DNA of 64,000 nt from Squalus acanthias (taxonomy: Eukaryota): NCBI GenBank assembly GCA_030390025.1, contig CM059453.1, forward strand, positions 3,658,001-3,722,000. The letters run 5' to 3'. The notes beneath the pieces are model-generated. The model was not told where the DNA came from and searched no databases. It saw nothing but the letters and a program-made list of their open reading frames with translations. Below are positions 1-45,290 of the stretch, piece after piece. Both the position numbers and the translations under genes were made by a program. Within the stretch, counting starts at the first letter, position 1. Every line of letters starts with the position of its first letter.

Positions 1-1088
1 TTGTAAACCTCCTCAGCACTCCCTTCAAGGAATTGACATCCTTCCTAAATCAATGAACAATTCTAGATGCAAATGGAATAAGACAGCACAATCGATTTAC
101 AATGTAAGAATGTGCAACTTTCTTTAATATTCTCCTATTACTGTTCTTGCGTGGATTCTGTGCTTATCAAATTAAAAGCTGCCTTGATCATAAATTTTAT
201 TTTACGATAAAAGGGTGCAGTTGGAGTCCACCAAACATTGGGAGTAATTTTGAATGGGAGCGATGAAGTAAAATGAGTGAATGCCAGTCGGAAGCTCTTC
301 TTATATTTCTCCATATAAATCCAGATATCACCCCTTTTACGCTATGGCAGGAGGACAAACCTACCCCCAATACTTCATAATTTTAGGGTTAGTCGAGCTG
401 ATTGACATTAGAAATGGAGCACCCAATTTGTCAACAAAATAAATGTTTTAGCTTCACGAAAATTTTCATCTCCTTATCCATTGTGCCGCTCTGTAAAATT
501 ATATGAGCCCCTGAGCTGGTATAAGGAATATAAAAGTCTCTGCATGCTGAGACCGTGACATGGAAATGGAACCAGAAACAGAAATAGGATCTTAAATGAT
601 TTTCATTAAGATGAAATTGGCATATAGGTTTGTTTCCTGTCACCATTCGCATCGTAGTCGTGTGTTGAAAGAGTTATGTTAAACAGAACGTTGAGCTAAA
701 CACATGCTTATGTCATCTAAGGGGAAGTTAGATAAGCATATGAAGGAGAAGGACATACAGAGTTATGCTGTAATAGTTAGATGAGGAAGACTGGGAGGAA
801 GGTCGAGTGGAGCATAAACGCCAGCAAGGACTGGTTGGGCCGAATGGCCGTTTTCTGTTCTTGGATATTCTATGTAATCCTATGTCATTTTTTCCAAAGT
901 AGCATTAAGAATGCTATGCAATTACTTCATTTGCAAAGCACGCATCAGGGGTCGTTGCAGTAGCTTCTCTTCATTTAGGTTCAAACATAACGCTTCAAAA
1001 TCTTTATATGTGTTCAGTTAAATTACTTTGAAATTGAGAAGAACTGTTTGAACCAGCATTGGCATAGCAGGGTGGAAATTTCACTTAC

Positions 1089-1144
1089 CGTTTACCGTTG
1101 AATTAATGTTCGCATCATTTTGTCCCTGCATTCGATCATTCATC
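1089..1144 (-). CDS. Cytoplasmic exon 1, duplicate copy (MNDRMQGQNDANINSTVN)
   Basis: Acceptor catttatttag|G, donor AACG|gtaagt; 56 nt, phase 2 to 1; paralog of 4880-4935. Confidence 0.8.
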
Positions 1145-1810
1145 CTAAATAAATGTTGTGCAACAGATCAAAATGTGAACTTTCAGGAGGATATTTTATT
1201 TCAATGATTCATTCAATATGATCTGCAACAGAAATTCTAATTATTCAGGACCAATTATTAATGAAAACTGTTTTTCTGACCGGAAAACAGAAATGTTATG
1301 CTACAGGTCGATCTCCAAGTCAGGAGTCAAGACTTCAGGTGAAGCGGGGTAGAGCAAATAATTTGATCAGGACATGGAGATATTATTCAGGTTACCAGAA
1401 TAAAGTCTAACAGTGTGTCCTTATTTCTAACCTATCATGTATATTATTGTTTACAGTCAAATATTAAAACTTGGGGCTATATGGGAAGCCGATTGAAGTT
1501 GGTGGAAGCCCAGATGTTTCTCTGTACTGCAGCTTGAGGATTTGGGAGACGCAAAACTGAGGCACTGCAGCATCAACAGTGGAGGGAGGGTGTAATTACA
1601 GCATGAGGCGTTTGCAGAGGCAGATTCCAATCAATCCGAAAACAACATCAATTAATATTAAATGTGGAAACATGCCTTATCACTACATACATTTGAAGTG
1701 TGATATAGAAATATTTGGAAACAACTTTTTTCAAACCTAATTTAATTCAATCTACCGGGCTTTGGACAAAACTATTAAAGATGCAGTTAAAAGCTGAATA
1801 CTATATTTAC

Positions 1811-1934
1811 CCGGCTGCTTTCCTTTTGACCAACCATGCAGTGATCACGCTGATCAAACACACAATAAGAAGAGCAGAAATCACTATCCCTGCTATGGCG
1901 CCACTGCTTATGTTATTGTACTCACTTGTTCGAT
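1811..1934 (-). CDS. Transmembrane exon, duplicate copy (DRTSEYNNISSGAIAGIVISALLIVCLISVITAWLVKRKAA)
   Basis: Acceptor ttgcatttttcag|, donor GG|gtaaat; 124 nt; CEACAM1-like SxGAIAGIVI hydrophobic segment followed by a KRK stop-transfer. Confidence 0.88.
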
Positions 1935-2402
1935 CTGAAAAATGCAAACAGACAAAATAATGAACGCTATTATCACACGCCAAAGACAATTGCAATTCGG
2001 TAGCAATATATAAAAAAATGAAATCAGCATTCTCAGTTTTAATGGTATTTTGTTTGAAGTCTTTGGTGCCACGCAGCAACATTTATACAAATAAGCCAAA
2101 TATCGATATTCAGTGCACTCAAAATATACTCAATTATTATAGAATTTACTCTCAAATAGGGTACGTTATCCGAGAGGACTGGTTTCCCAGAAGATTAGAT
2201 TTCAAAGCTCACCATAGCTGTCCCTGGAATTGTACACAATATAACTGCTAATTTGTGAGCAAGCACCAGAAAAATGTTGTGTAATTGCATTTGTTGTTCA
2301 ACCCAACTGGTTGAGTAATGTTCTACCGGGAAAGAATCGTGTCACCCTATACAGTCTATATCTCTCAACAGTCCTGCACTACCTGGTGGACAGTTAATGC
2401 TG

Positions 2403-2457
2403 TTAGGGCACCTGGGGATCAGACATAAACATTGTCTTGACCCGTGAAACCCCTATC
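2403..2457 (-). CDS. Candidate terminal coding exon of the ITAM tail (R-IGVSRVKTMFMSDPQVP-stop)
   Basis: Acceptor cattttatttgttcccag| lies 79 nt after the phase-2 donor at 2537; in frame to TAA at 2405-2403. A second nearby AG (2412) is also possible. Confidence 0.3.
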
Positions 2458-2536
2458 CTGGGAACAAATAAAATGTCCATATTTCTTTATTTTCGCAACA
2501 TGGTGGAACAGTTGTAATTTTTTTCTACCCACTTAC

Positions 2537-2580
2537 CTCATCAGATCACTGTAAACTGCCTGATCTTGCAGCTGTAATCC
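2537..2580 (-). CDS. Cytoplasmic exon 4 (GLQLQDQAVYSDLMR), second half of the ITAM
   Basis: Acceptor ttcttcacttttcacag|, donor AG|gtaagt; 44 nt, phase 0 to 2. Confidence 0.85.
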
Positions 2581-2717
2581 CTGTGAAAAGTGAAGAAATC
2601 ATTCTGTTTAGCTGACAGATTGGCCGAGATATGGAGCGCAGCAAAAGAGAGCTGAAATTCCATTTTTAAAAACTGAAAATGAATAGTTTGAAGAAATAAA
2701 CAAAATAATGTCCTTAC

Positions 2718-2759
2718 CATGTAAGTGGAGTTTTCATCAAGTGGCTTCGGAGCTCCCTC
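2718..2759 (-). CDS. Cytoplasmic exon 3 (EGAPKPLDENSTYM), first ITAM tyrosine
   Basis: Acceptor ttgcttttgcacag|, donor ATG|gtaagg; 42 nt, phase 0 to 0. Confidence 0.85.
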
Positions 2760-2914
2760 CTGTGCAAAAGCAATTGGATGAACCAAATTGTAAACAGTTA
2801 TACAAAGAATCCCATCAAGTTGCTTCAGAATTAATGGTAAGCCCAACATCTTATATACTGACATAAAAGTTAGAAGAGTTTGCTTATATTATCCATCCCA
2901 CAAACGAAATTGCA

Positions 2915-3027
2915 GGATGTGAATTTTCACTTCTTCTGCCTGTTTGAACAAGGACAATAGTGCATCGAACGCACATTTTACGCTCCGCCCGATTTTCGTT
3001 CCGCATGTAAAAGTGAAAATTCATCCC
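2915..3027. mobile_element. Short MITE-like element with terminal inverted repeats
   Basis: ggatgtgaattttcactt ... aagtgaaaattcatcc inverted ends, non-coding. Confidence 0.55.
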
Positions 3028-3256
3028 AATATTCTATCCAACACCAGAAACATGTTTGGATTGTCGTAAAACCCCAACTGGTCCTCTAATGCACTGAGTC
3101 GAGATCGCCTGCCACTCCCTCCCTGGTCTGGTTATATGTGACACCAGTTTACTGCTAATACAGGAACCATGACTTCGATGGATATGAACAAGAATAGATT
3201 CCCTTTAGTTTACTGAGCTCACCAATATAGTAGAATATTAATAGAACTGTACCAAC

Positions 3257-3321
3257 CTTTTGCTTTCTCGGAATATTTTCATAGGTCCCTCCTGAGTTCC
3301 CACCGACTGTAGCGGAGATGT
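3257..3321 (-). CDS. Cytoplasmic exon 2 (DISATVGGNSGGTYENIPRKQK)
   Basis: Acceptor tgtttgatattcccccag|, donor AAG|gttggt; 65 nt, phase 1 to 0; contains TYENI. Confidence 0.85.
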
Positions 3322-3365
3322 CTGGGGGAATATCAAACATTTAATCAGCCTTGAAAATACATTAA

Positions 3366-3880
3366 TAGAATCATAGAATGAAACAGCACAGAAGGAAGCC
3401 AATCGGCCCATCCTGCATGTACCATTGGTTTGGACGTGTTATCTCATTATTCCCATTCCACCACCCTTTCCCTAGAGCCCTGTAATTTTTTCCCCGTCAA
3501 GTATTTATCCAATTCCCTTTCGAAAGTTACTGTTGAATCTGCTTCCACCGTCCTTTCAGGCAGTGCATTGCAGATCATAACTACTCACTGCATAAATAAA
3601 TCTCATCTGCCAGCTTTCTCATTCGACAATTTGCCTGAATCTGTGTCCTCTGGTTATTGACCCTTCTACCACTGGAACAGTTTCTCCATATTCACTCTAG
3701 CAAAATTCTTGATGATTTTGAACACCCATATTAAATCTCCCCTTAGCCTTCTCAGCTCTCAGAACAACAATCCCAGCTTCTCTAGCGTCTCCATGGAACC
3801 GAAGTCCCGAATCCTTGGTACCATTCTAGTAAACGTCATCAGCAACCTCTTCAAGGAATTGACATCCTTCCTAAAGCAAT
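3366..3880 (-). mobile_element. CR1 LINE 3' fragment
   Basis: (atagaatc)n tail and decayed similarity to the CR1 RT C-terminus seen elsewhere in the window. Confidence 0.75.
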
Positions 3881-4879
3881 GAACAATTCCAGATGCTAAT
3901 GGAATAAGACATTGTAAGAAATTGCATCGTTATCTAATATTATTCTATTATTGTTTATTGCGTGGATTCTGTGATAATCAAATTAAAGGCTGCTGGGACA
4001 TAAACTCTATTTTAGGATAAAAGGGTGCAGTTGGAGCCCACCAAACATTGGGAGTTATATTGACTTGGAGCGATGAAGTAAAATGAGTGAATGAAAGTCG
4101 GAAGCTCTTTTTACATTTCTCCATATAAATCCATATATCACCCCTTTTCCGCTAAGGCAGAAGGACAAACTTACCCCCAAAACTTCATAATTTTAGTGTT
4201 AGTCGAGCTGATTGACATTACAAATGGAGCACCCAATTTGTAAACAAAATAAATGTTTTAGCTTCACGAAAATTTTCATCTCTTTGTCCATTGTGTATCT
4301 CTGTAAAGTTATATCAGCTCCTGAGCTGGTATAAGGAACATACATGAAAATGGAGCCAGAAACAGTGATTGGATCTTAAAGGATTTTCATGAAGATGCAA
4401 TTTGCATATAGGTTTGTTTCCTTTCACCATTCGCATCCAAGTCTTGCGTTGAAAGACCAATGTAAACAGAACGTTGTGCGAACCACGTGCTTATGTCTTT
4501 AAGAGGATGCTGCAGAAGCATATGAGCGAGAAGGGAATAGAGAGTTATGCAGATAGAGTTAGATGAGGAAGGCTGGGAGGAAGCTCGAGAGGAACATAAA
4601 CGCTAGCACGGACTGGTTGGGCCGAATGGCCGGTTTCTGTCCTGTGTATTCTGTGTAATCCTATGTATTTATTTCCAAACTTGCATTGAGCATGCTATGC
4701 AATCATTTCATTTGCAAAGCACGTAACAGGGTTCGCTGCATCAGCTTCACTTCATTTGGGTTCAAGCATAACGCTTTAAAATCTTTATATGTGTTTAGTT
4801 AAATTACTTTGAAATCAAGAGGAACTGTTGAAACCTGCATTGGCACAGCAGCGTGAAAATGCTGAAATATTTCACTTAC

Positions 4880-4935
4880 CGTTTACCGTTGAATTAATGT
4901 TCGCAGTATTTTCCCCCTGCATTCGATCATTCGTC
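4880..4935 (-). CDS. Cytoplasmic exon 1 (R-TNDRMQGENTANINSTVN)
   Basis: Acceptor catttatttag|G, donor AACG|gtaagt; 56 nt, phase 2 to 1, compatible with the TM exon and exon 3257-3321. Confidence 0.85.
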
Positions 4936-5088
4936 CTAAATAAATGTTGTGCAACAGACCAAAATGTGAACTTTTATTGCAATGATTCATTAAATATGAT
5001 CTGCAATAGAAATTCTAATTATTCATGACCAATTATTAATGAAAACTGTTTCTCTGACGGGAAATAAGAAATTTTATACTACAAGTTA

Positions 5089-5380
5089 GAAACATAGAAA
5101 CTTAGAAACTAGGAGCAGGAGTAGGCCATTCGGCCCGTCGAGCCTGCTCCACCATTCAATACGATCATGGCTGATCATCCAAATCCAGTACCCTGTCCCT
5201 GCTTTCTCACACAGAATCCCCATCGAGCCTGCACCTATCCCACCCTATCCCCGTAACCCCACGTATTTAATTCCCCCTAACATATCCCATCCTATCCCCA
5301 TAACCCCACATATTTAATCCCCCCCTAACACTAAGGGTCAATTTATCATAGCCAAATCAACCTAACCCGCACATTTTTGG
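5089..5380 (-). mobile_element. SINE with CR1-type 3' tail, present in only one duplicate copy
   Basis: (agaaacat)n tail; flanked by acaagtta (5081-5088) and acaaatta (5381-5388); absent at the equivalent site (~1302) in the other copy. Confidence 0.8.
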
Positions 5381-5884
5381 ACAAATTAATCTCCATGTCA
5401 GGAGTCAAGACGTCAGGTGAAGCGGGGTAGAGCAAATAATTTGATCAGGACATGGAGATATTAGGTTACCAGTATAATGTCTAACAGTGTGACCTTATTT
5501 TTAACCTATCATGTATATTATTGTTTATAATCAAATATTAAAACTTGGGACTCTTTGGGAAGCAGATTTAAGTTTGTGGAAGCCGAGATGTTTCTCTGTC
5601 CTGCAGCTTGAGGATTTGGGAGACGCAAAACTGAGGCACTGCAGCATAAACAGTGGAGGGAGGGTGTAATTACAGCATGAGGCGTTTGCAGAGGCAGATG
5701 CCAATCAATCCGAAAACAACATCAATTAATATTAAATGTGGAAACATGCCTTATCACTACATACATTTGAAGTGTGATATAGAAATATTTGGAAAGAACT
5801 TTTTAGAAACCTACTTAAATTGAATCCACCAGGCTTTGGACAAAACTATTAAAGATGCAGGTAAAAGCTGTATACTATATTTAC

Positions 5885-6008
5885 CGGCCTCCTTTCCTTT
5901 TGACCAACCATGCAGTGATCCCGCTGATGAAACACACAATAAGAAGAGCAGCAATCACTATCCCTGCTATGGCGCCACTGCTTGTATTATTTTCACCATT
6001 GGTTTGAT
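5885..6008 (-). CDS. CEACAM-like transmembrane exon (DQTNGENNTSSGAIAGIVIAALLIVCFISGITAWLVKRKGG)
   Basis: Acceptor ttgcatttttcag|, donor CG|gtaaat; 124 nt, phase 1 to 2; GAIAGIVI motif as in the CEACAM1 TM; no charged TM residue. Confidence 0.9.
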
Positions 6009-7360
6009 CTGAAAAATGCAAACAGACAGAATAATGAACGCTTTTATCACACGCCAGAGACAATTGCAATTCGGCAGCAATGTGTATTTGGGAGAGAAAT
6101 ACAAATTTCAGATTTTAGTGGCATAGTGTTTGACTGGTTTCAAGTTTCAATTGCTGCAAAAAATAAAAGGGGCCAATGGTTGAAACCAACACAATTAATG
6201 TTCTCCCTTTCAAATACAACTCTGTGCAACTCCATGGTCGTCCAGCTGGTTCAGGTACTATGCCCTTGATCCCACCATACATTTCTAGTTACCCTGTACA
6301 GCTCTTGCTAATGCTAAAAACCGGCGATTGAGGAGCGACCGCCTGTTACACACCACTCCCGATTATTCGTTCCAATAATCGAATGGAAAATCGGAGATAA
6401 ATGGTAGATTCTTGATGGGATTCAGGAACTGAATGATTTGGGCTGCAGCTGCGCGATTCTTAAAAGCAGGATTACAACTGGAAACTCCGCAAAAAGAACA
6501 AATAGGATTCTGGCTTTTGTGTATACTAGTGTATTGAATACAAAAATCAAGGAGGTGGAGATGAGTCTGCACAATACATCCGTCAGGCTATATTTAGAGT
6601 ATTGTGTGTAGTTTTCGATTTCACTAGGATGCCAGCGATGAGAGGATATGAATGAGACGAGGGCTCAAAATCTAAATAGTTTTCACTGCAACAGCTAAGT
6701 TTTGGAGAAGGTACAATGGAAGTTCTCAAAATTGTGAAAGGAGTGTAACTAGGGAAAGACTGTTGTCACTGGTCTGTAAACCAGTTCAAGTTGCATAAAC
6801 CTTGGCTTCATGCTAGAAACACAAAAGGGGAGTTGATAACCTATTGTTCCTGCCAAGGATTGTTACAATATAGAAGATAAGTGGCTAACGGTTCCAATTC
6901 AATCATAACACCGAAGAGGGAGCTACATAAACAGTTCAAGAAACAGTTGAAAGGTATGGGGAAATAGCAAAGACATGAAGCACCAAAATGAGGCAGGTTG
7001 ATCATTTATGGTAATGATATACAAGCTATTTCCGGGGATAGAGTAGATAGCGCCATTGTGAAGTGAACAGTCATACAGGTCGAACAGCCATACTGAGCGT
7101 GCATGATTCTGATTACACGATCTAAGAATTATGCACATTACACGTCACGTTACATTATGTATGAGACCATTTGTTTATTCCGTCTGGGACAGTATGCATA
7201 CCCTTGGATCATACACCCAAATCAAAATTTTTATAAATAACATCCTTACCTCCAACACAGCTCGAACAGAACATAGGAATACTACTGATGAAGTAAATGC
7301 ATTCAGGGTTACAAGTCTGGCCAAAGTTCGTATTTAACGCACAGTGAAACATGTACTTAC

Positions 7361-8986
7361 CGTTTACAGTTACCTGTATGGAAGCCTTACTGCCCTTTTT
7401 AAGAACATAAGAAATAGGAGCAGGAGTAGGCCATTTGGCCCTTCGAGCCTGCTCCACCATTGAATAAGATCATGGCTGATCTGATCTTCGCCTCAACTCC
7501 ACTTTCCCGCCTGCTCCCCATAACCCTTTACTCCCCTGTAGCTCAAATATCTGTCTATCTCTGCCTTGAATATATTCAATTACTCAGTCTCCACAGCTGT
7601 CTGGGGCAGAGAATTCCAAAGTTTCACGAATCTTTGAGAGAAGAAATTACTCATCTCCGCTTTAAATGGACGACCCCCCACTCTGAAACTATGCCCCCTA
7701 GTTCTAGATTCCCCCACGAGGGGAAACATCATTCCTGCATCTACCCTCTCAAGCCCACTCAGAATATTACATGTTTCAATAAGATTGTTTTTTTAATTCA
7801 TTTATTGTACGTGGGCGTCGCTGGCAAAGCCACCATTTATTGTCCATCCCTAATTGCCCTTGAGAAGGTGGTGGTGAGCTGCCTTCTTGAACCGCTGCAC
7901 TCCGTCCGGTGAAGGTACTCCCACAGTGCTGTTAGGTAGGGAGTCCCAGGATTTTGACCCAGCGACGATGAAGGATCAGCGATATAATTCTAAGTCAGGA
8001 TGGTGTATGACTTAGAGGGGAACTTGGAGGTGGTGGTGTTCCCATACACCTGATGCCCTTGTCCTTCTAGGTGGAAGAGGTCGCGGGTTTGGGAGTTACT
8101 ACCGAAGAAGGCTTGGCGAGTTGCTGCAGGGCATGTTGTAGGTGGTAGACACTGCAGCAATGGTGTGCCGGTGTTGGAGTGATGAATGCATAAGTTGTTT
8201 GATGGGGTGCCAATCAAGCGGGCTGCTTAAAGATCCCCTCTCATTCCTCTAAACTCCAATGAGTATAGGCCCAAGCTGCTCAAACTTTCCTCATATGACT
8301 ACCCCTTCATCTCAGGAATCAACCTAGTGAACCTTCTCTGGACTGCCTCAAATGCAAGTATATCCTTCCTTAAATAAGGAGTCCAAAACTCTACGCAGTA
8401 CTCCAGGTGTGGTCTCACCAACGCCCTGTACATTTGTAGGAAGACTTCCCCACTTTTATACTCCACCCCCCTCGCAATAAGGGCCAAAATACCATGTTCC
8501 TTCCTAATTAATTGCTGTTCCTGCATGGTAACTTTTTGTGTTTCATGTACGAGGATCCCCAGATCCCTCTGTACCGCAGTATTTTGTAGTCACCCTCCAT
8601 TTAAATAATAATTTGCTTTTTAATATTTCCTACCAAAGTGGATAACCTCACAATTTCCCACATTATATTGCAGCTGCCAAATTTTTGCCCACTCACTTAA
8701 CCGATCTTTATCTCTTTGCAGACTCTTTATGTTCTCCTCACAACTTGCTTTGTATCGTCAGCAAATTTGCCTACAATTTGTTGAAGATGTTATTAACCTG
8801 ACAATATATTTCTCACCATGATTCGATCTTATTCAGTCAATGTTGTAAATTGGTCCTTTCTTTAAGAGACTGGTCCCATTCTCTCCTTCATATAGACCAG
8901 CTGGGACTGATAGGGCAGAAAAATAAAATGTAAGAGCTTTCCCTATTTCTACCCAAACTGGGTAATAATGACCTTTTCTGGTCCAC
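7361..8986 (-). pseudogene. Decayed CEACAM B-type IgC exon split by a CR1 insertion
   Basis: Acceptor tgcatttcttgcag| then GPEKVIIT / frameshift / PVWVEIGKALTFYFSALSVPAGLYEGENGTSLL...NID-stop...CQVNNIFNK. After the CR1 (7400-8774) the exon resumes as KGSKASIQVTVN, donor G|gtaagt at 7360. Confidence 0.85.
7400..8774 (-). mobile_element. CR1 LINE 3' fragment with a nested LINE-tail insertion (~7785-8228)
   Basis: RT peptides KFADDT and RPHLEYCVEFW plus (aagaacat) tail; the nested element resembles the 3' end of the LINE at 14295-15752. Confidence 0.88.
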
Positions 8987-9080
8987 CTGCAAGAAATGCA
9001 AGAGCATGTGGCTTTTGGACAACTAAAATAATTACTAATATGCAATACTAACTAATCTTTTTGGCACCCAGCAAACTTGC

Positions 9081-9356
9081 AATTAATTTGCAGGATGGTA
9101 TATCCAGAATCGCTGCTGTAATTATTACTTGCATTGCATTTATATGTTCCTGAATCGCTTCTGTTAACTCTGATTATAGTCAGAGTAAAATTGTCCGGAG
9201 ACATTATTATTCTTCCATTATCCTGGACAGCTTGATTAGTCTTAAACCAAATCCGTGACTGTACAAAGACCGAAGCGTGAAAAGTCAGTAAAATGGTATC
9301 GATGTTTTCTACTGGGTTTGAGTTGTTGACCGATACAGTGACTTTAGAAATTGGTT
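9081..9356 (-). pseudogene. CEACAM A-type IgC exon, open but damaged (EPISKVTVSVNNSNPVENIDTILLTFHASVFVQSRIWFK...DSGTYKCNASNNYSSDSGYTILQIN)
   Basis: Acceptor ttttaattgtatttacag|; 276 nt, open phase 1 to 1. The B-strand Cys position is Phe (TTT at 9282-9280) and the donor is T|gcaagt (GC). Not in the ORF track. Confidence 0.85.
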
Positions 9357-9875
9357 CTGTAAATACAATTAAAAGGGAAATGCGGTTACATCATTTTCTA
9401 CAAAAGCTGTTAAAAGCGCTAATTAAGTAATTTCACATGAAAACATCAAGAGGGTGAAATTCAAATTGGGTGGGGATGCCCAACGGGCGGTGTCACATCT
9501 GTCGCCAGCTCCCCGTCCGACATTGAAGCCAATAGAACTGATTATTGGAAGGGACAGAGAACAGACGCTAGGTGCAATACCGCCTATTTTGCTTCCCCGT
9601 CCAATTACTTTTGAAAATTCCTACTGAACCTGCTTTCACCAATCTTTAAGGCAGTGCATTCCAAATCATATAAACTCTCTGTTTAAAAATAATTTTCATC
9701 TCCGTCGGTTCATTCGCCAATTATCTTAATCTGTGCCCTTTGGTTACCGACTCACCTGCCATTTGAAGCAGTTTCTCCCCATCTACAGTATCAAAGCCCC
9801 TCATAATTTTGAAACCTCTGTTAAACTTCCCCTTAACCTGCTGTGCCCTAAGGAGAACAATCCCAACTTCTCTAG

Positions 9876-22939: not shown

Positions 22940-24510
22940 GACAGCAGGAGTAGACCAATCGGCCCCTCGAGCCTGCTTCGCCATTCAATGAGATCATGGC
23001 TGATCTGATCAAACCTCAACTCTAAAGAACACAAGAAGTAGGAGCAGGACCAGGCCACTCGGACCCTGGGCCCGCTCCGCCACCCACAGGGCCTTGACCG
23101 ATCCGAACTCAAACTCATGTCCAATTTCCAGCCCGCTCCCCGTAACCCCTGATTCCCTTTACTTCTAGGAAACGGTCTATTTCTGTTTTAAATTTATTTA
23201 ATGAAGTAGCTTCCACAGCTTCCTGGGGTAGCAAATTCCACAGACCCACTACCCTCTGAGTGAAAAAGTTTCCCCTCATCTCAATTTTGAAAGAGCAGCC
23301 CCTTATTCTAAGATTCTGTCCCCTAGTTCTAGTTTCACCCATCATTGAGAACATCCTCACCGCGTCCACCCGATCAAGCCCCTTCACAATCTTATATGTT
23401 TCAATAAGATCGCCTCTCATTCTTCTGAACTCCAATGAGTAGAGTCCCACTCTACTCAACCTCTCCTCGTATGTCCACCCCCTCATCCCCGGAATTAACC
23501 GAGTGAACCTTCTTTGTACTGCCTCGAGAGCAAGTATGTCTTTTCTTAAGTATGGACACCAAAACTGTATGCAGTACTCCAGGTGCGGTCTCACCAATAC
23601 CCTATACAACTGCAGCAATGCCTCCCTGTTTTTATATTCTATCCCCCTAGCAATAAAAGCCAACATTCCATTGGCTTTCTTGATCAGCTGCTGCACCTGC
23701 ATACTAACTTTTTGATTTTCTTGCACCAAGACCCCCAGATCCCTTTGTAATGCAGTACTTTCCAGTTTCTCGCCATTAAGATAATAACTTGCTCTCTGAT
23801 ATTTCCTGCCAAAGTGCATAACTTCACATTTTCCAATATTGTATTGCATCTGCCAAATCTCTGCCCACTCACCCAGCCTGTCTATATCCCCTTGTAGGTT
23901 TTTTATGTCCTCCTCACTCTCTACTTTCCCTCCCTTCTTTGTATCATCTGCAAACTTTGATATGTTACACTCGGTCCCCTCCTCCAAATCGTTAATATAG
24001 ATTGTAAAGAGTTGGGGACCCAGCACCGACCCCTGCGGAACATCACTGGCTACTGGTTGCCAGTCCAAGAATGAACCATTTATCCCAACTCTCTGCTTCC
24101 TGTTAGATAACCAATCCTCCACCCATGCCAGAATATTATCCCCAATCCAGTGATTTTTTATCTTGAGTAATAATCTTTTATGTGGCAACTTGTCGAATGC
24201 CTTCCGGAAGTCTAAATACACTACATCCACTTGTTCCCCTTTATCCACCCTGTACGTTACGTCCTCAAAGAACTCGAGCAAATTTGTCAGACATGACTTC
24301 CCCTTCATAAAGCCATGCTGACTTTGTTCTATTAAATTATGTTTATCTAAATGTTCCGTTACTGTCTCCTTAATAATAGACTCCAAAATTTCACCCACCA
24401 CAGATGTTAGGCTCAGTGGTCTATAATTTCCAGCCTTCTGCCTACAACCCTTTTTAAATAAGGGTGTTACATTAGCAGTTTTCCAATCTGCTGGGACCTT
24501 TGCTGAGTTC
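22940..24510 (-). mobile_element. Young CR1 LINE, 3' part of RT (open 428 aa)
   Basis: ORF 23115-24401 with PQGSVLGP and KFADDTK; extended 3' tail shared with 53247-54632. Confidence 0.95.
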
Positions 24511-25206
24511 AGGGAGTTTTGCTTTTCTTAATCCCCATCCCGCACCTCCCACCACCCACACAGACACATACATACAACTTTCCCCTTTCTCCAGAATAGA
24601 CCTCACATTTTCTTATTAAGAACTCCCAGACTTCGGCATAGAAATCAGTCTTGGCGGTAACGCTCAACCTGCAGTATCCCGTCAGCTGCCTGTTACACCC
24701 CTCCCTCCCCCGCCCCCCCTCCCACACACACACATATGATATTCCGTTTTATTGAAGTCAAAGGAACTGATATTTTAAAATTCATTCATGGGTTATTGGC
24801 ATCGCTGGCAAGGCCGGCATTTATTGCCCATCCGCAAATTGCCCTTGGTGGTGGTGAGCCGCCTTCTTGAACTGCTGCAGTCCGTGTGGTGACGGTACTC
24901 CCACAGTGCTGTTAGCGAGCGAGTTCCAGGGTGTTGACCCAACGAGGATGAAGGAACGGCGATACATTTCCAAGTCAGGATGGTGTGTGACTTGGAGGGG
25001 ACCTTGGAGGTGGTGGTGTTCCCATGCGCCTGCTGCCCTAGGTTGTAGAGGTAACGGTTTGGGCAGGAAGTAAAAAGGGCTGCCAATTCGCTTTGAGACC
25101 ATTTCTATCTGATGGTGTGGACCAATTTCACCCCATTACATTAAGGAGAGCTACACAGCACGCAGGTAGGATGCTGATATTGCCACTTTTGGCTCCAGTG
25201 TCTCAC

Positions 25207-25521
25207 CTTGCCCTTCCAAATACACTTCAAATTCAAAGGCTTTCTCTCCAATTGCATTTCTCGCAAGGCAGGAGTATTTCCCTCCATCCGCCATTTCAAA
25301 ACTCTTGATGGCTAATTGAGAGAAGGTGCGGTTTGAAGTGATGGTGAACTTGGTGTCGGACGCCGTGATCGATGAGTTCCCTTTCGACCAGGCGAAGGTC
25401 GCCGGTAATAGTTCGGTAGCTGAGACTCGCACCCGCTTGGTTAACGACACGTCTAAGGCAATGTCGGCATTCAGAGCCACGTTCAAATGCGGCCCGGAGG
25501 GTGAAGAGAGCTGGGGTTCAT
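25207..25521 (-). CDS. Ig exon 8 of the ectodomain gene, last ectodomain exon found (DEPQLSS...LPATFAW...DGGKYSCLARNAIGEKAFEFEVYLEGQ)
   Basis: Acceptor ccttgtgatttacttag|, donor CAAG|gtgaga; 315 nt, phase 1-1; I-set-like F strand, B-strand Cys absent. Confidence 0.88.
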
Positions 25522-26093
25522 CTAAGTAAATCACAAGGGTATAAGCAGATTGAAATGTCATTGGTCTCCTGAGCAAAATGCGAAAGGATAGTTACAGGTC
25601 ATCACACGCAGGAACATCAGCAAAGAAAGACAGGTAATTAATACTGAAGTAATTAGGGGAGAGGGGTGATGATTTGAGCTTGTTGGAGCAGTTGGCCATT
25701 GCCTGAAAGCCCTTAGGTATATGTTGGTACCTGGTTCTGATTGGCGTATCTGGTTTAGCTTGGCAACAGCATGGCCATTCAGGTTGTCTAGTGCCTGATA
25801 ATCCTGTTATAACTATTTACAGGCGAATTATACTCGCAGCACATGTGGAGATTGGATCCCCACACGTTTCTTTTCTGACGAACTAGATTTCATTCTAAAC
25901 ATACCACAGGCTCCATCCGACAACCCAACAAAGAAAAAGTATTTATGAGAATGAGTTGATTTAACTAGCATATGTAACAGCATTGTACACACACGTGTGA
26001 ATATATACACATATATATATAGGTGTGTGCGCGCGCGCCATCATAATGCACAAATTCATATAATAACAAAAAACAGAATTTTGTTTTACTCAC

Positions 26094-26333
26094 CCAAAGC
26101 CAATCTACAAGTCCCTGCGGAGATTACGTGCTGTCCGGTGCACAGTAGTTCCATTGGTGTGTTGAGATATTTCTTTCCAATGGTGTAACGTTGTTCGTTT
26201 GATCCAGTTAGAGTGACCGAGTCAACCGTGAGCGCAATGGTAGTGTTCGGTACCCCACCCGCCCAGGAGCAGCACAAGTCCAATTGGTCTCCTCTGTCTG
26301 TGGCATCACACGTGATCTGTTCTGAAGGTTGCT
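26094..26333 (-). CDS. Ig exon 7, VSIG10/VSIG10L-type Cys-rich domain (QPSEQITC...LDLCCSWAGGVP...LLCTGQHVISAGTCRLAL)
   Basis: Acceptor ttttttgtcctgcgcacag|, donor TTGG|gtgagt; 240 nt, phase 1-1; C..LxCxWxGGxP..CxxxH..C pattern of VSIG10-family domains. Confidence 0.88.
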
Positions 26334-26577
26334 CTGTGCGCAGGACAAAAAATAATCTTCGTTCATTGATCATGCTTTTTGCTTCCTTTAATTTAAAGAA
26401 ATGTGACTTTTGATGGGACCGAATACAGGTTTCCACAGTTGCGTGCAGTCGTTTGTCTCAATGCCTCAGACTCTGCGCTGAAGATGAACTCGGAGCACAT
26501 CAAGCTGAAATGAAAAGGGTAAGAGGAGATCTGGAGGAGGAGTTCACAATAATGAATCGTTCTGATAATTTAACTGT

Positions 26578-27392
26578 TGCAAGAATCTCTTTGTGAGATC
26601 TTTGATGCCAAATGGCTCGACATTGACCCATATTGGTGGCAATGGTTAATAGTTTACTGAGCACAAGCAAGAATCAATGTAATTACTGTATCGTAAGCAG
26701 AATTTACAAGGTAAAATTACGAGTTAAAGTACCCCGTTTATTCCTTGGGTAAAAGTCACGGTAAGAATTGTCTGCAACCATCTGGCCGTGCCTCGGGCCC
26801 GTATTCGCCTCTGAGTGTCTCCGAGATTTACTTGAATCCTCCTCAGTCTTCTTCTACACTTAAACCCTACTGGTGTCCCTTTCTTATACCATTTCTTTCA
26901 ATTCAAATCTATGGAGCTTGACCCGAATCTGTCACTCAACTTCTCATCCTCCCCTGATAGGCCCTCTCACTGCTCCTCTGATCTCACACCGTCCCTCACC
27001 TTCTGTTACTTTCCACTGAAGAATACCTATTTCCAGAGATGTTATTTGTGGCTCACGCTCCCCTTCTTATCTATTCAGTGAAACTCCCTCATCAGTCTGG
27101 TTCCTATGGTTGCATAGATTCCCTCCCCAGCTACGGCTTGTTTTACTCAACTTATTAAACTCCTCTCTGTTCAAGGTATGTGACTTCATGCCTTTTCACT
27201 GTGTTTTGTTCAGCTACAGTCTACTCTGATAAAAATGTCAAGCTCATCATTCTTTTTCCCATCACTCTTTTCGCTAAGCTGGTTACTTTGCCATGTAAGC
27301 TAATTCTAATGGCATCTATATATATATATATGTGTGTGTGTGTGTGCGTGTGTGTGTAAGTGTTAATAAACAAGTTAGTAACTGCATGTATA

Positions 27393-27429
<37 letters not shown>

Positions 27430-27486
27430 ATAAAGCAAATAAATGTTAATAGACAAATTATTAAGTAAATTGACTATAATCTTACA
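26578..27486 (-). mobile_element. Solo LTR, same family as 57367-58298, with an internal (TA)n/(TG)n microsatellite
   Basis: Reverse complement matches the 57367 copy from tgtaagattatagtcaattt to cacaaagagattcttgca; no clean TSD. Confidence 0.85.
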
Positions 27487-27529
27487 CAAGGGGGGAAACT
27501 ATTTCCTCCGGCTGGCCTCCGACATTCTA

Positions 27530-28095
27530 CCCTACGTTAACTTGAGGTCATCTGTAACTCTGCCGCCCGTGTTCGAACTCGCACCAAGTCCCGTTCACCC
27601 ATCACACCTCTGCTCGCTGACCTTCAATGGCTGCCGGTTAAGCAACGCCTCGATTTTAAAATTCAGATCCTTCTTTTCAAATTCCTCCATGGTTTAGCCT
27701 CTCCCCATCTATGTCATCTCCTCCAACCCCACAACCGCCCCCCCCCCCCCCCCCCCACCCCACCCCGAGATATCTGCGCGCCTCTAATTCTGGCCTGTTT
27801 GAGCATTCCTGATTATAATCGCTCAACCATTGACGGTCGTGCCTTCAGCTGCCTGGGGCCGAAACTCCGGAGTTCCCGCCCTACACCTCTCCGCCTCGCT
27901 ACCGTTCTTTCCTCCCTTAAGACGCACCTTAAAACCTACCTCTTTGACCAAGCTTTTGGTCACCTGCCATAATATCTCCTTATGTGGCTCGGTGTCAAAT
28001 TTTGTTATATAACGCTCCTGTGAAGCGCCTTGGGGTATTTTACTATGTTAAAGGTGCTAAATAAATATAAATACAAGTTGTTATTGGTGTTGTTG
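27530..28095 (+). mobile_element. L2-type LINE 3' fragment
   Basis: Decayed LxWLP / FKI / AFSCLG-type RT tail ending cgctcctgtgaagcgccttggg...(gttgtt)n; related copies at ~49150-49535 (+) and ~61178-61575 (-). Confidence 0.7.
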
Positions 28096-28711
28096 TGATG
28101 AAGAAGTCGTCCATCAGAGGCCGTTAGCTTAAAGGTGTTTCCAAATTGGGAAGTTGGATTATTTTTGTGTTACATGGAGCGTTGTTGTGCCATGCAATGC
28201 CAGAAACAGTAGTGGAAGCAAATCCACAGTAACTGTTAAAAAGAGAGAGACTGAATATATGATAAAGAAAAAAAGTATCACTGGGAACGAGGAGGGCTTT
28301 GGGACAGAGAACAAGCAAAGCGCCCTGGTGCGAGTGGGCCCCCTTTTGTGCTGAAAACTCACTGATTCCATGAAAATACACAGGCAATCCAGCTCACTAA
28401 CCTAACATTAAAACATAAGCTGGGAGCATTCTGGATATAGGAGAGACCACAAGCTACACATGACTTCATAAAGGGGAAAGTGAAGCAAAGAAAGGCAAAA
28501 GAGGCGGGTCAGACAAGCGTCTTGTCGTAATTGAAGATGTAAGAACTATTATGCTGAGTCTTAAATACCGGAAACCCTTAAGGTTTATTACTTTGGGTGA
28601 GGAACTGGTGAGTTAAGTTCAATGTTCTCCTTTGCCTCCGAAGGACAGATTATTATACATCAAAACCATTCAAAGTTAGTGCACTCGATCCTCCAGATCA
28701 CAGCCTACTGA

Positions 28712-28787
28712 TAGAGGGAGAGTGACAGAGAGACACAGAGAGGGAGAGAGAGGGAGATAGAGAGAAGCAGAGAGCGAGAGAGAGAGT
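28712..28787. repeat. (GA)n-rich microsatellite
   Basis: Imperfect GA dinucleotide run. Confidence 0.8.
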
Positions 28788-28862
28788 GTGTTAGATACAC
28801 AAAACCTCCCAACGTAACATGCAACTACGAGGAAGAAGCATTGTCCTTGTCAACTAACTTAC

Positions 28863-29147
28863 TGTATACAAGGATTGAAACGTCTGAATCGTTGCTTTTC
28901 TTGGTATAACTGTTCTCTGCAAAGCAGGTATAATTCCCAGTGTTGTTGAACTCCGCGCTTTGTATCACATGGGTGGGTTTATTGCCCGTTGTGTCTCCAT
29001 TGTGCAGCCAGGTGTAGTTACAGTCTGGGACAGACTGAGTCTGACAGAGCAGAGTCACTGCAGCCCCTTCCTTCACACAATACTGTCCCGGGTATTTGCT
29101 ACCGCACCGCTCGGCAGTGGTACTTGTCTGGGCAGAGTCGGGTCCAT
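28863..29147 (-). CDS. Ig exon 6, CEACAM B-like IgC (YGPDSAQTSTTAERCGSKYPGQYCVKEGAAVTLLCQTQSVPDCNYTW...NTGNYTCFAENSYTKK...ILVY)
   Basis: Acceptor ctatttccaatttag|AT GGA CCC, donor TACA|gtaagt; 285 nt; forms the YYGPD junction with the preceding exon. Confidence 0.92.
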
Positions 29148-29965
29148 CTAAATTGGAAATAGCGATGGGATTAGTGCAGATAGATAGATAACAGGCAGAT
29201 GAAAATCGGTGAGGAACGTAAATAGGTAGAAATTTGTCCTGGGCCGTAGTGGAAAGCGGGCGATGGCAAATCGGTGGCCCGTGTTATACTCTGGTGGATT
29301 GAATGGAAAAGAAATTTGGGCGGAGTGTAAGGCACATGGGCCGCCCCTTACACTACAATTCCCCTCAATGGAACTGAAGATCAGGCGTGGCGCACCCACC
29401 CAAAGCCAATTTCTAAAATTACCCAGATTAACATTGCTAACATTTCTTCAACCCATAATAGAACCGACACAACAAAACATTCAAACAGCTCTTCATTCAC
29501 ATTCGCTTAAGATAAATTTAAGCACTGCTGGTCGAGCAACAGGACAGCGGAGAACTTTTTTCACCCAGAGGGTGGTGGGGGATCTGGAACTCACTGACTG
29601 AAAGGGTGGTAGAGGCAGAAACCCTCATCACATTTAAAACGTACTTGCATATGCACTTGAAGTGCCCTAGCCTACAGGGATACGGACCAAGAGCTGGAAA
29701 GTGGGATTAGGCTCGATAGCTCTTTTTCGGCCGGCACAGACACGATGGGCCGAATGGCCTCCTTCTGTGCCGTAAATGTCTATGATTCTGTGATCAAAAG
29801 AAGTATTCAGTTGCCACCAACTTGTGTTCTTCCTATCTTCCAGTCGGAAGGTAATCTAAATAAATGGTGCAGTTTCTACAGTATGTGAATTAAATGTTTT
29901 GTTTTATTTCCGATTTTTTAATATAGTTTCATCGACTTTTAATGGCATTATTTGAATTTACTCAC

Positions 29966-30250
29966 AGTAAATCGTTAAATTGACTGCCGTGCTGCGATCA
30001 CTGCTCACGGCATTCGTGGCTATGCAGATTAACCCCTCACTGTCGGATCTGAGCACGGGTTTGATTGTCAGGCCGCTGTGATCTGCAGAATGTGTATATC
30101 GTGGGTTTTCTGGTAAAGGTTTTTCAGCAGCGCTCCAGGAGTAGGTTGGGGAGGTTCCCCCGGCTGCACACTTCAGGGTCACAGTATCTTTTTCCTCCAC
30201 AGATCCAACTGACGTTGGACTTATACTGACACTCACATTGGATATCCGAG
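29966..30250 (-). CDS. Ig exon 5, CEACAM A-like IgC (ARISNVSVSISP...VTLKC...SW...ICIATNAVS...LTIY)
   Basis: Acceptor attcattttttttttacag|, donor TACT|gtgagt; 285 nt, phase 1-1. Confidence 0.92.
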
Positions 30251-30299
30251 CTGTAAAAAAAAATGAATACAGGAAAATGTCATGGGGAGCTTTGACATT

Positions 30300-31710
30300 T
30301 ACATCACATTGAGCTTTGCTTTTGATGTAACTACAATAGACGGATAGGGAACGAAAAAGGAGAGGGGGTTATCAGTACTGATCGAAGATACAGTTACAGC
30401 ACTGGAAAGGGGTGATGACGGCTCTGGGGCAGAATCTATTTGGGTAGCGTTAGAAGCAAAAGAGGAGCTGTTGTGCTGCTGGGTGTGTACTTTCGACCTC
30501 AAAGAGTGGGAAGGAGATGGAGGAGCAAAACTGCAAGCAAATTTCGGAAAGATGTGAGAACAATTGAGTCGTGGTAATGGGGAACTTCAATTATCCTGAC
30601 ACATACTGCAGTACAAAGACAGTGCAAAGGGCAAGGGTGTGCGTGTGTGGGAGTGTGTGGCAGGGTGGACAATGCTGAAATGTGTACAGGAGAACTTTCT
30701 TAATCAGTGTGTTTCCCACCCAACGAGGAAGGAAGCGGTACTGTATCTAGTCCTAGGAAATGAAGTGCAGCAGTTGGAGGCCTACAAGGAGGAGATAGTT
30801 CGGGTGCAGACTAAACAAATTCCTACGAGGGTGGAAGCAACGGCGTCCAAAGGTCGGGCTCCCTGTGTGACGAAAGAAACTGAGATTAAAATTACAGGAA
30901 AAAGAGGTTATGATAAACTTCAGGTCCATATTGCAGAAAAGAATCAAGCCGAATGCAAAAAGTGCAGAGGAGAACTGAGAAAGGAACTAAGAGGGGCTGA
31001 GTTTACATTTTTCTCATTAGCAAACGTAGCATAAAGAGAACGTTAAAGTCTTTCATAAACATGTAAAGAGTAATAAAGCCTTTCCACCATCTACAAGGCA
31101 CAAGTCAGGAGTGTGATGGAATACTCTCCACTTGCCTGGATGAGTGCAGCTCCAACAACACTCAAGAAGCTCGACACCATCCAGGACAAAGCAACCAGTT
31201 TGATTGGCACCCCATCCACCATCTTAAACATTCACTCCCGCCACCACCGGCGTACCGTGGCTGCAGTGTGTACCATCTACAAGATGCACTGCAGCAACTC
31301 GCCAAGTCTTCTTCGGCAGCACCTGCCAAACCCACGACCTCTTCCACCTAGAAGGACAAGGGCAGCAGGCGCATGGGAACACCACCACCTCCAAGTTCCC
31401 CTCCAAGCCACACACCATCCTGATTTAGAAGTATATGGCCGATCCTTCATCGTCGCCGGGTCAAAATCCTGGAACTCCCTACCTAACAGCACTGTGGGCG
31501 CACCTTCACCACATGGACTGCAGCGGTTCAAGAAGGCGGCTCACCTCCACCTTCTCAAGGGCAACTAGGGATGGGCAATAAATACTGGCCTTACCAGCGA
31601 CGCCCAGATTGCATAAGCGAATAAGACAAAAGTAAAAGGTTAGTCAAAGAAAGGTTGGGCCGATTAGAGACCAAAATGGGAATGTTCGTGTGCAGGCAGA
31701 GGACACTACA
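30300..31710 (+). mobile_element. Old CR1 endonuclease fragment interrupted by a second-family LINE 3' fragment (~31075-31628)
   Basis: Decayed GxFNYP and LVLGNE peptides; insert encodes MMEYSPLAWMSAAPTTLKKLD and ends in the gggatgggcaataaat tail. Confidence 0.75.
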
Positions 31711-32711
31711 TGATTAGTGTTCCTGGCTGCCTGTCTTTTCTGATCGTTAAGTATCTTGGAATACTTAGTTACCAACTTTGATCACCTTGCAACCACGTCA
31801 CTGTAATGGCTATTAGATCAAAGCCATTTATCTCTATTTGTTTCTTTAACTCGGCTATCTCGTTATGACTGCTTCGTGCATTCAGATAAAGAGCCTTCAA
31901 TTTTGACTTTTTACCATTATTTCTTGCTTTCGCCTTATTCACTGATTCACTTTTACCGTTAAACTCTCTGGGTGAGAAATTCATGTACTTACCCCCACTC
32001 CGTAGCGCCATGAAATGACAATAAAATGGTGGCCGCCACGCTTTCGCCAGCTGAAGGCAGTTCCAGCGGCAGCCACCATATACCTCTTCCCCTTTACGCT
32101 GCCAGCGCCCTGCAATGAAATAGTGGCTTGGTGACATCAATCAGCGTGCAACGCCGACTTAACGTCACCAACTCGAACTTTGGCCCAAGCTCTGAATTCA
32201 GCGCTTGGGGCCGAAGCACACCAGGTGACCTAATGTGCAAGCAGACTGACAGTGGCTGACAGTGGTGATTTCTGCAGCTCTTAATGGTACACACACTTCA
32301 TTGAGGTTAGTTTGAATTTAAGGTTTTGCACTGTTTTTTTCTTTTATTGAAGTGTTGGCTTGCTGCAATAGATGTGAATTTTTTTTAAGTCTGTCGGCAG
32401 TGCTGCTGGGCACTTGCAATGGCTCGGATGGTAAATGAAGGCCTTGAGAAGACAAAACATGCTGCGAATACTCAGCAGGTCGCACAACATCTGTGGAGAA
32501 AGAAACAGAATTCACGTCTCAGGTCAACATGCTGCCTGACCAAATGAGTATTTGCAGCATTTTATACTCTAATTGCAAATTTACAGCATCCGCTTGCAGA
32601 GGGAAGAGGATGACGTGGAAGAGGAGGAAGCTGAAGAGGAGGAATCAGGCAGAAGGATGCATCCCAGACAGCCCCTTTGTGGCCGGGATATCCGGGTTGG
32701 AATTATAGTGT

Positions 32712-37375: not shown

Positions 37376-37379
37376 TCCC

Positions 37380-38500: not shown

Positions 38501-39259
38501 TTTTTCCCCCTCTCTCACTTCCTGTCACACTCTGGTAATCTTTACCCAAATCGCTACCCTGCTCCATTGCCTTGAATTTTCTCTTTAAATTTCTAAATTT
38601 CTCCTCACCTGACCCTTCCCCCTCCCCCCCTCGCCCACTTTTTAGATTAAAGCCCAATCTACAGCCCCATTTATTCGATTCGCCAGAACACTGGTGCCAG
38701 CCCGGTTTAAGTGGAGACTGTCCCGACGGAACAGCTCCCTCTTTCCCCAGTACTGGTGCCAGTGCCCCATGAATCAAAACAATCAGAAATTGTCCTTCCG
38801 CCTTCAAACCTGGGCAGAACACAGCGAAAGGTAAAAAACACAAACAGTACTTAACATATTGACATCCTAAAGAGGCAGATTCCCAGGACTCTGTGTCTGT
38901 CAATGAATCTCCTCCTAACAAAGAGGTGGATAGCTACACATTGATATTCTTACAAAGGAAAAGGATGACGAGGTGTGACCACATGCTACTGGTATTAAAA
39001 TTGTCTTCTGCCTATTCTCTACAGTTACATTAACTTAAAAGAACTTTGAAAGCCTTTGAGAAAAAGCGACTTGAGTATAGTTCACATTATTACAATAAAT
39101 TAAATATGGAAATGGTTAAATGGATGTTGCTCACAAATGTGACTGTAACTGTTTCCCCCCTAAAATTAGGTTCTATATTTTAATGGGCAGTTTAAATATA
39201 GAATATTGAAGTAAATCTAAAAGAAACAGCATTATTACACTGCTGGATTTACTCAGGGC

Positions 39260-39740: not shown

Positions 39741-39791
39741 TTAAAAGGCCGCTTTGAATCAATTGCCAAAGTCTAATATTTCCCCACTTAC

Positions 39792-45066: not shown

Positions 45067-45069
45067 AAT

Positions 45070-45290
45070 TTGAAATGGTGCTTTCGGATCTTTTACGTCC
45101 ACCTGAGAGAGCAGACGGGGTTTAACATCTCATCCGAAAGACGGCACCTCCTACAGTGCAGCACTACCTCAGTACTGCACTGGAAGTGTCAGCCGAGCTT
45201 GATGTGCTCAAGCCTCTGGAGTTGGGATTTCAACCCACAACCTTATGGCTCAGAGGGGAGAGTGCTGCCAACTGAGCCACAGCTAGCCCT
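45070..45290 (-). mobile_element. tRNA-headed Deu-type SINE, 5' part
   Basis: Head gtggctcagttggcagcac...ggttgtgggttgaaatccc and body ggacgtaaaagatcc; truncated at the adjacent CR1 tail. Confidence 0.7.

Follow-up and report, generated by a model that had tools for sequence, protein, structure and literature searches.

A doubled transmembrane–cytoplasmic cassette in a headless, probably non-functional CEACAM-like ITAM receptor fragment of Squalus acanthias

Does a receptor locus whose transmembrane (TM) and cytoplasmic exons occur twice encode alternative tails, a single tail with two ITAMs, or no working receptor at all? The question is raised by a 64,000-nucleotide stretch of Squalus acanthias DNA (hereafter the window), at and beyond whose left edge five minus-strand exons (TM and C1–C4) of a shark CEACAM-like ITAM receptor are present twice, head-to-tail (copies A and B). 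Our analysis indicates that the locus holds a headless fragment of such a receptor with TM–C4 doubled, probably a functionless side product of complex segmental duplication. The front end is lost and the fragment lies inside a damaged gene, and therefore the doubling is likely a rearrangement leftover rather than a working double-signal receptor.

Structure of the doubled cassette

Self-BLAST pairs window positions 3–2007 with 3829–6081 at 83%–93% identity and, together with exon mapping (Table 1), confirms the duplication of TM and cytoplasmic exons reported in a preliminary description of this DNA; as also stated there, no Ig exon lies between C4-A and TM-B. The breakpoint had rightly been placed just upstream of the TM exon, but its figures (~2055 and ~6140) were off by ~45–55 bases. 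The junction joins a point ~525 bases past the C4-A donor to a point ~75 bases before TM-B and has its counterpart at ~6081–6085; the shared sequence is 1 base, or as many as 5 when copy B's form of the intron is compared.

Looking left of the window for copies of the TYENI and ITAM exons, as had been proposed, yielded C2-B to C4-B, which with the terminal exon C5 span G000:C30:3657.5–3655.5 kb. Cassette B, which might have proved truncated or stop-containing there, is complete, and both cassettes are free of stops, frameshifts and broken GT/AG sites, so that the open frames and GT-AG sites first claimed for both copies extend to the B exons outside the window. The YENI, YMGL and YSDL tyrosines are identical in A and B. 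The exon ending in phase 2 at 2537 had been described as the ITAM exon; the phase is correct, but the exon holds only the second ITAM half, and a phase-0 intron divides the first YxxL between C3 and C4 (YM|GL-x7-YSDL).

Copy A has no terminal exon, and a single C5, which the preliminary description had missed, comes after copy B. All 18 of the 18 other cassettes in the DNA examined are single, each with its own C5. Five of six putative RNA runs (X1–X4 and X6) were examined, with joint sets drawn from X1–X4 and from X1, X3, X4 and X6. The phase-2 donor of C4 is the true donor in the family, spliced to C5 in two of four runs among the contigs listed, and the phase-0 C3/C4 junction that splits the first YxxL is spliced in 4/4 runs. 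Read-through of C4 as a terminal exon (AGG TAA) was rejected, because the GT persists where the stop is absent and spliced contigs continue to C5. A possible last exon only 80 bases past C4 was likewise dropped, C5 lying ~1.2 kb away.

Table 1. Features of the locus (window coordinates unless indicated; exon phases as entry>exit)
Feature	Position	Strand	Remarks
TM-A, first transmembrane exon	6008-5885	-	124 nt; phase 1 in, 2 out
C1-A	4935-4880	-	phase 2>1
C2-A	3321-3257	-	phase 1>0; TYENI (YxN motif)
C3-A	2759-2718	-	phase 0>0; ends in STYM
C4-A	2580-2537	-	phase 0>2; second half of ITAM (GLQLQDQAVYSDLM)
Duplication junction	2007-2013	.	C4-C5 intron of cassette A joined to intron before TM-B
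TM-B, second transmembrane exon	1934-1811	-	acceptor and donor intact; join from C4-A out of frame
C1-B, first cytoplasmic exon of second cassette	1144-1089	-	phase 2 in, 1 out
C2-B, C3-B, C4-B	~481, ~1048, ~1223 bases left of window base 1	-	open; GT/AG intact
C5, sole terminal exon	~2490 bases left of window		Arg-Arg-stop
Broken B-type IgC exon	7340..8990	-	stop codon; Cys>Phe; split by ~1.4 kb retroelement
A-type IgC exon	9080..9360	-	open; first Cys is Phe; donor reads GC
LINE-like element	22943..24520	.	3' end split by ~67-kb block
Host gene U ectodomain	25205..52996	-	leader, N and seven Ig exons; relative of P0010

Origin and history of the two cassettes

Copies A and B differ at 30/331 exon positions (9.1%) and 240/2502 intron positions (9.6%; p = 0.84), and such divergence of exons at the intronic rate had been named beforehand as counting against functional tails. 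The A–B pN/pS is 0.87, although this rate test is weak, given that values of 0.56–0.86 are also obtained for g4418, the gene with alleles matching those of the commonest spliced contigs. Changes private to B number 9/331 in exons and 74/2502 in introns; values from x4476 and x4571 (C3), g4661 (TM) and h238 (C3 start), which insertions misalign locally, were left out of the rate comparison. No exon indels separate the copies (1.47 expected), and the neutral probability of both cassettes staying intact is ~0.10 on a single branch and 0.01 along the entire A–B path. The cassettes are open beyond neutral expectation and free of exon indels, so both were constrained for most of their history.

Cassette B looks like a patch from another paralogue, because it lies ~10% from A and from all paralogues whereas both flanks are 4%–6% from one single-tailed paralogue. 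Compared with that paralogue (g4454), divergence is 4.1% and 3.6% upstream, 4.1% in cassette A, 10.5% in cassette B, and 4.9% and 5.9% downstream; from six of seven paralogues B is 10.1%–10.5% distant, and from the seventh 18.7%. The tree unites A with single-tailed g4454/h238 (100/100) and places B outside A's 7-row clade (98/98). A basal B equally far from all paralogues would also be expected if the cassette had been duplicated in tandem, in place, when the radiation began (~10% divergence) and every other paralogue had since reverted to a single cassette, and this history would suit the head-to-tail layout. Tandem copies collapse easily, and no donor paralogue emerged, as a 2-kb piece of B had no genome match above 90% among the 40 scored of 8593 candidates. 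An old duplication is nevertheless unlikely, since it requires at least three separate losses (g4392; g4594/g4715; g4454/h238), none of which left a clear A/B hybrid. It is also at odds with g4454 being nearer A than B in every 250-base bin, with a near-even mix only in the last ~200 bases, as homologous B-to-A return predicts.

For a patch from another paralogue, the mechanism would probably be repair synthesis with template switches among paralogues, entering cassette B by microhomology and leaving it by long homology. Cassette B would have been picked up from a paralogue that was then working and is now absent from the assembly, which would explain why it is open yet ~10% from everything. 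Two other derivations failed: a deletion fusing in a neighbouring gene's complete 3' end does not account for B, because the flank past B is A-type, and g4693, which lacks TM–C4, is not the reciprocal product, as its breakpoints differ. Birth and death are common in the family: g4392 has a stop in its tail, g4594 a frameshift and g4661 a TM insertion, while g4693 has lost the cassette.

The insertion, its host gene and possible transcripts

The fragment belongs to a ~67-kb block that matches an ITAM-CEACAM cluster 0.8 Mb away. It is inserted into the 3' end of a LINE, which in turn lies in the last ectodomain intron of a CEACAM-like host gene, U; the insert and U have the same orientation. The block starts at 22946, ~175 bases past the N-exon end in the closest paralogue, g4454, whose homology stops there, and ends at C30:3613635 beside the LINE tail repeat; internal junctions lie at 2010 and ~9.2 kb left of the window. 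In both other U copies examined (2/2), the two ends of the insert map to one empty-site position, with the LINE 3' end split between them. An assembly artefact in this repeat-rich cluster might be suspected, as the junction sequence occurs once in the assembly (29/29 candidates scored) and the neighbourhood contains 97%–99.8% duplicates, but is scarcely credible: B is 9%–10% diverged and unique, unlike a false duplication, a split LINE with a precise empty site is hard to get by misjoining, and the block contains no N (unresolved base).

An intact gene had been assumed upstream of the cassettes. The fragment instead has no leader or IgV-like N exon of its own, none occurring between 9.4 and 24.5 kb, whereas eight of nine other C30 cassettes have an N exon upstream. 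Its A- and B-type IgC exons, mapped with phase-1 borders, relate it to CEACAMs, and their best matches are CEACAM-like by name (E down to 6e-61). Two supposed hinge micro-exons at 7245–7390 were discarded, one being the end of the split B-type exon and the other having no counterpart in shark proteins.

Any transcript would presumably start at the U promoter. U's leader donor is CT instead of GT (~52950) and a ~740-base inverted-repeat element (~51977–52718) breaks up its N exon, leaving the ectodomain donor without an intact leader or ligand-binding exon, and therefore no normal surface receptor is expected. The U copies are 1.4%–3.4% apart, and either the insertion or the lesions may have come first. 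Beyond the insert, at C30:3612.6 kb, lies the TM exon that belongs to U itself; a search for U's tail exons by tyrosine motifs found none. Within the block, the nearest acceptor for C4-A is the intact one of TM-B, and exon-by-exon splicing would read 4 codons before reaching a stop; with five junctions still to follow, such a transcript would probably be subject to nonsense-mediated decay.

The mutually exclusive tails first proposed hold up only insofar as both cassettes are open; copy A has no terminal exon, so a single-tail form with either tail needs a five-exon skip. As to cis features that might bar joint inclusion, all sites are GT-AG and the introns are long enough; judged by site type, intron length and reading frame, the frameshift is the only coupling of the two TMs. 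A working one-tail chimeric activating receptor, FCGR2C-like and with alternative tails, would splice the U ectodomain to TM-A/tail A or TM-B/tail B and on to C5, in competition with U's own TM and tail. The insert's orientation and its position between U's last Ig exon and TM fit this proposal, with a phase-1 U7 donor and TM-A acceptor permitting an in-frame fusion of ectodomain and foreign TM, as do the seven open U Ig exons and the intactness of both cassettes beyond neutral expectation. A single spliced TM>C1 contig, present in one of four runs (X1, at depth 8.7), also favours it, with 0 mismatches to TM-B over 68 bases and B the only fit among 20 TM copies; because all X1 depth at 1878 is of the non-B base, this contig may stem from a B-lineage gene elsewhere. 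We regard the chimera as quite unlikely, given the damaged U leader and N exon and the skip of five exons with no cis change favouring it.

The alternative first proposed, a 2537>1144 join concatenating two signalling cassettes, stands in that the phases match, the join is in frame and open, and B is complete, but no cis feature favours skipping of TM-B, whose acceptor is intact. With C1–C4 amounting to 207 nt, skipping TM-B from C4-A to C1-B would lengthen the tail by 69 residues, adding a second YENI and a second ITAM with every tyrosine kept. Such a double-ITAM receptor is highly improbable: TM-B retains an open frame and family-typical acceptor and donor, which selection for a double tail should have silenced, the sole B-type contig includes TM-B, a working leader and N exon are both missing from the locus, and 7/7 shark and ray proteins retrieved by tail query have single tails. 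Neither a 2537>1144 nor a 2537>1934 joint occurs among the 10 joints from X1, X3, X4 and X6 or the 15 of 123 listed from X1–X4, which is no evidence, as rare forms are lost from contigs and the insert may be absent in the animals. Very unlikely, too, is the wider proposal that the 67-kb insertion gave U a doubled foreign activating tail, so that splicing could provide one ectodomain with U's own tyrosine-motif tail, with one ITAM or, with TM-B skipped, with two YENI and two ITAM motifs. This would be a paired receptor within a single gene, alive on haplotypes in which an intact 5' end precedes the insert, or here via cryptic splicing.

Relation to known CEACAM and ITAM receptors

In TM, YENI and YMGL-x7-YSDL, the fragment resembles the shark and ray CEACAM-like ITAM receptors P0007, P0008, P0011 (Pristiophorus), P0003, P0005, P0012 and P0013. 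P0007, P0008 and P0011 end in LMRR, as C4 and C5 do here, and the A-type IgC exon is 64%–76% identical to five named shark proteins retrieved by Ig query. The shark and ray ITAM proteins have one tail, a leader and an N domain, whereas the window locus has two TM–C4 blocks and neither leader nor N.

The locus carries a YxxL-x6–8-YxxL ITAM with its first YxxL split in phase 0, an intron position that the available sections of PMC2110893 and PMC5112662 give as the hallmark of ITAM-type CEACAMs. According to the available sections of PMC2110893, PMC2832619 and PMC5112662, the split YxxL, the YxN motif and decayed A/B exons are common to the ITAM CEACAM1 paralogues of mammals and Xenopus (human CEACAM3, dog CEACAM28), among which pseudogenes have arisen by exon loss and ITAM tails by exon replacement; those sections include no member with a duplicated TM plus tail. 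Tail exons number five here, compared with four in mammals and three in reptiles in the accessible part of PMC13278318. A reading of dog CEACAM28 as carrying two ITAMs was unsupported, as "two ITAM" has 0 matches in the accessible text of PMC2110893 and means two genes in that of PMC7042247.

Human FCGR2C, as covered in the available portion of PMC6563257, similarly places one gene's ectodomain ahead of another's ITAM tail via segmental duplication. FCGR2C is the product of an unequal crossover that involved two similar genes, whereas here a 67-kb block was inserted in an intron, with the host's TM retained downstream, a doubled tail block and damage to the host 5' end.

As most likely read, the locus is a snapshot of CEACAM clusters shuffling TM-and-tail blocks among paralogues and placing them behind foreign ectodomains. 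Such blocks would be raw material for paired receptors, although the product here is probably dead. Within the portions of literature text searched, no natural double-ITAM or switchable-tail CEACAM was found; if alive, this locus would be one and would allow ITAM copy number to be tested directly in a decoy receptor of a jawed vertebrate.

The source names of P0003, P0005, P0007, P0008 and P0011–P0013 are CEACAM5-, CEACAM6-, CEACAM1- or HEPACAM-like. P0010, the relative of U, carries repeated D-x-Y-x-x-V motifs, which are non-canonical as ITIMs.

The doubled cassette and its splicing

The doubled structure is real in this 3.7-Gb genome (see the table, where C30 is contig CM059453.1). As the preliminary description had proposed, both copies are open with GT-AG sites; the second, cassette B, is complete left of the window, its tyrosines unchanged. 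The breakpoint does lie in the intron before TM, although at 2007-2013, matching ~6081-6085, rather than at ~2055/~6140. There the C4-C5 intron is fused to the intron preceding TM, with 1 shared base, or as many as 5 when compared with the intron as it stands in B. The terminal exon, C5, is a single copy ~2490 bases left of the window, downstream of B, and the remaining cassettes in the DNA retrieved (9 on C30, 8 on C3362 and 1 on C392) are single in 18 of 18 cases, each with its own C5.

The IgC exon at 9080-9360 retrieves 9 shark or ray proteins out of 90 candidates; their names are CEACAM5/6-like or PSG-like, and protein matches assign the gene family to sharks. Three proteins (P0007, P0008 and P0011) share the C-terminal end YMGLQLQDQSVYSDLMRR. 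A phase-0 intron interrupts the first YxxL of the ITAM, the same feature that excerpts of two papers give as typical of ITAM CEACAMs (PMC2110893, PMC5112662). A skate CEACAM is reported in part of PMC3628338, and none of the CEACAMs in excerpts of seven papers (PMC13278318, PMC3628338, PMC2110893, PMC2832619, PMC6563257, PMC5112662, PMC7042247) has its TM-plus-tail block duplicated.

Features on C30 and two unplaced contigs
Feature	Position	Strand	Remarks
Repeated unit (TM, C1, C2 with TYENI, C3, C4)		minus	
Self-BLAST match in window	3-2007 and 3829-6081		
Inserted block	C30:3613635-3680946		~67 kb; long unique pieces match cluster part 4.41-4.57 Mb at 92-96%
Orphan C4-like exon, same insert	C30:3631.6 kb		inverted
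Orphan x-type C3-C4-C5, same insert	C30:3647.2-3647.9 kb (L012)		past junction ~9.2 kb left of window
U tandem array	window 25205-52996; C30:3.50-3.77 Mb		relative of P0010
Possible second chimera	C30:3501-3514 kb	plus	ITAM-cluster-type leader and N exon ahead of U-type Ig exons
U3	3767 kb		leader donor and N exon intact
ITAM-CEACAM cluster	C30:4.38-4.74 Mb (L021-L064)		CEACAM3-like design in shark; two subclusters in opposite orientation
Three extra C5 copies	C30:4617-4653 kb (L048-L052)		~12-kb spacing; no TM-C4 upstream; identical across 430 bases compared
g4693	C30:4691-4701 kb (L027-L028)		leader, N, intact A and B exons, C5; without TM-C4
Larger CEACAM-like gene	C30:4763-4810 kb (L106-L110)		adjoins cluster; N exon plus numerous A/B exons in alternation
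Unplaced contigs	C3362:30-270 kb; C392:58-75 kb		repeat 4.36-4.49 Mb and 4.57 Mb regions

Spliced RNA contigs carry the C2-C3 and C3-C4 joints in all four runs and the direct TM-C1 joint in two; loose contig ends at 2537 lead to the terminal exon in 2/4 runs among the matches listed. Mismatches to paralogues (4, 2 and 2 in C2-C4 against g4418; 2 in TM against g4715) are so few that at least organism A of the runs is S. acanthias or a very close species. One X1 contig, at a depth of 8.7, spans the TM-C1 splice and shows 0 mismatches to TM-B across its 68 TM bases, and only B of the 20 copies fits it; position 1878 has a non-B base in all X1 depth. Its source may be this locus, an allele or B's donor gene.

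Joining C4-A to TM-B gives a stop after 4 codons, and such a transcript would be a likely target of nonsense-mediated decay; joining it to C5 gives Arg-Arg-stop. The proposed concatenation of tails (2537 to 1144) is open as a C4-A to C1-B join, but the B-type X1 contig includes TM-B instead of skipping it, and a double ITAM receptor is very improbable.

Origin and constraint of cassette B

Cassette A differs by 3.9% from the single-tailed paralogue g4454 and by 9.4% from B, which falls outside A's clade with 98/98 support in a tree of 14 of the 20 cassettes (five C3362 copies and the C392 copy, near-copies of C30 rows, were left out). Against g4454, divergence is 4.1% and 3.6% upstream, 4.1% in A, 10.5% in B, and 4.9% and 5.9% downstream; B is therefore an odd patch between A-type flanks. 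Along the unit g4454 is closer to A, the affinity being near-evenly mixed in the last ~200 bases only. No relative of B closer than 90% was found in the genome (40 of 8593 candidates scored). Microhomology-mediated template switching is a known process, and we infer that B was acquired when synthesis switched template to a paralogue that this assembly no longer contains; another possible source is a tandem duplication of old date followed by repeated loss.

The preliminary description had taken exon divergence at the intronic rate as a sign against the second cassette. The A-B rates are indeed equal (exons 30/331, introns 240/2502, p=0.84), but 0 exon indels against 1.47 expected speak against plain neutrality. 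B-private changes number 9/331 in exons and 74/2502 in introns. The A-B pN/pS of 0.87 is a weak test, because other family pairs reach 0.56-0.86 or more. The chance of remaining fully intact is 0.24, 0.10 and 0.01 at 3%, 4.75% and 9.5% divergence; given this and the lack of exon indels, each cassette was probably part of a working gene through most of its divergence, which is no proof of selection for the doubled arrangement.

An insert in a host gene

The block lies in the intron between U7, the last Ig exon of the host CEACAM-like gene U, and U's TM. Its ends map to one position in 2/2 other U copies examined and split the 3' end of a presumed LINE (this label and "inverted-repeat element" are given on the basis of the sequence and of background knowledge rather than a library search). 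No leader or N exon of the fragment's own was found; an N exon lies upstream in 8 of the 9 other C30 cassettes. Homology to g4454 stops at 22946, ~175 bases past that gene's N exon. The fragment's A-type IgC exon has a Cys-to-Phe change and a GC donor, and its B-type IgC exon is broken.

With phase 1 at U7 as well as at TM-A, a fusion of the two would be in frame. Such a possible fusion is comparable to that of FCGR2C in part of PMC6563257 and resembles tail exchanges described in an excerpt of PMC2832619. A working single-tail chimera is nevertheless unlikely, as in the window copy of U the leader donor reads CT and a ~740-base inverted-repeat element interrupts the N exon; both lesions are common to it and copy U1 and absent from U3. 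We consider the whole probably a dead product of segmental duplication.

The neighbouring ITAM-CEACAM cluster

Within the cluster, N exons vary most, by eye, in the C-C' region, and stop codons occur in the B-type IgC exon of 6 of the 9 copies observed, the window counted. Paralogues x4476 and x4571 have neither A nor B exon, and in run X4 one loose contig end has an N exon spliced directly to TM, like P0011. These features suggest that cartilaginous fish have decoy receptors of N-TM-ITAM design. The larger adjoining gene is a candidate CEACAM1-like inhibitory partner, and g4693 could encode a secreted form. The extra C5 copies reflect either tandem repetition of very recent date or expansion in the assembly. 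Four g4418-like copies lie on C3362 against one on C30; this copy number differs between haplotypes.
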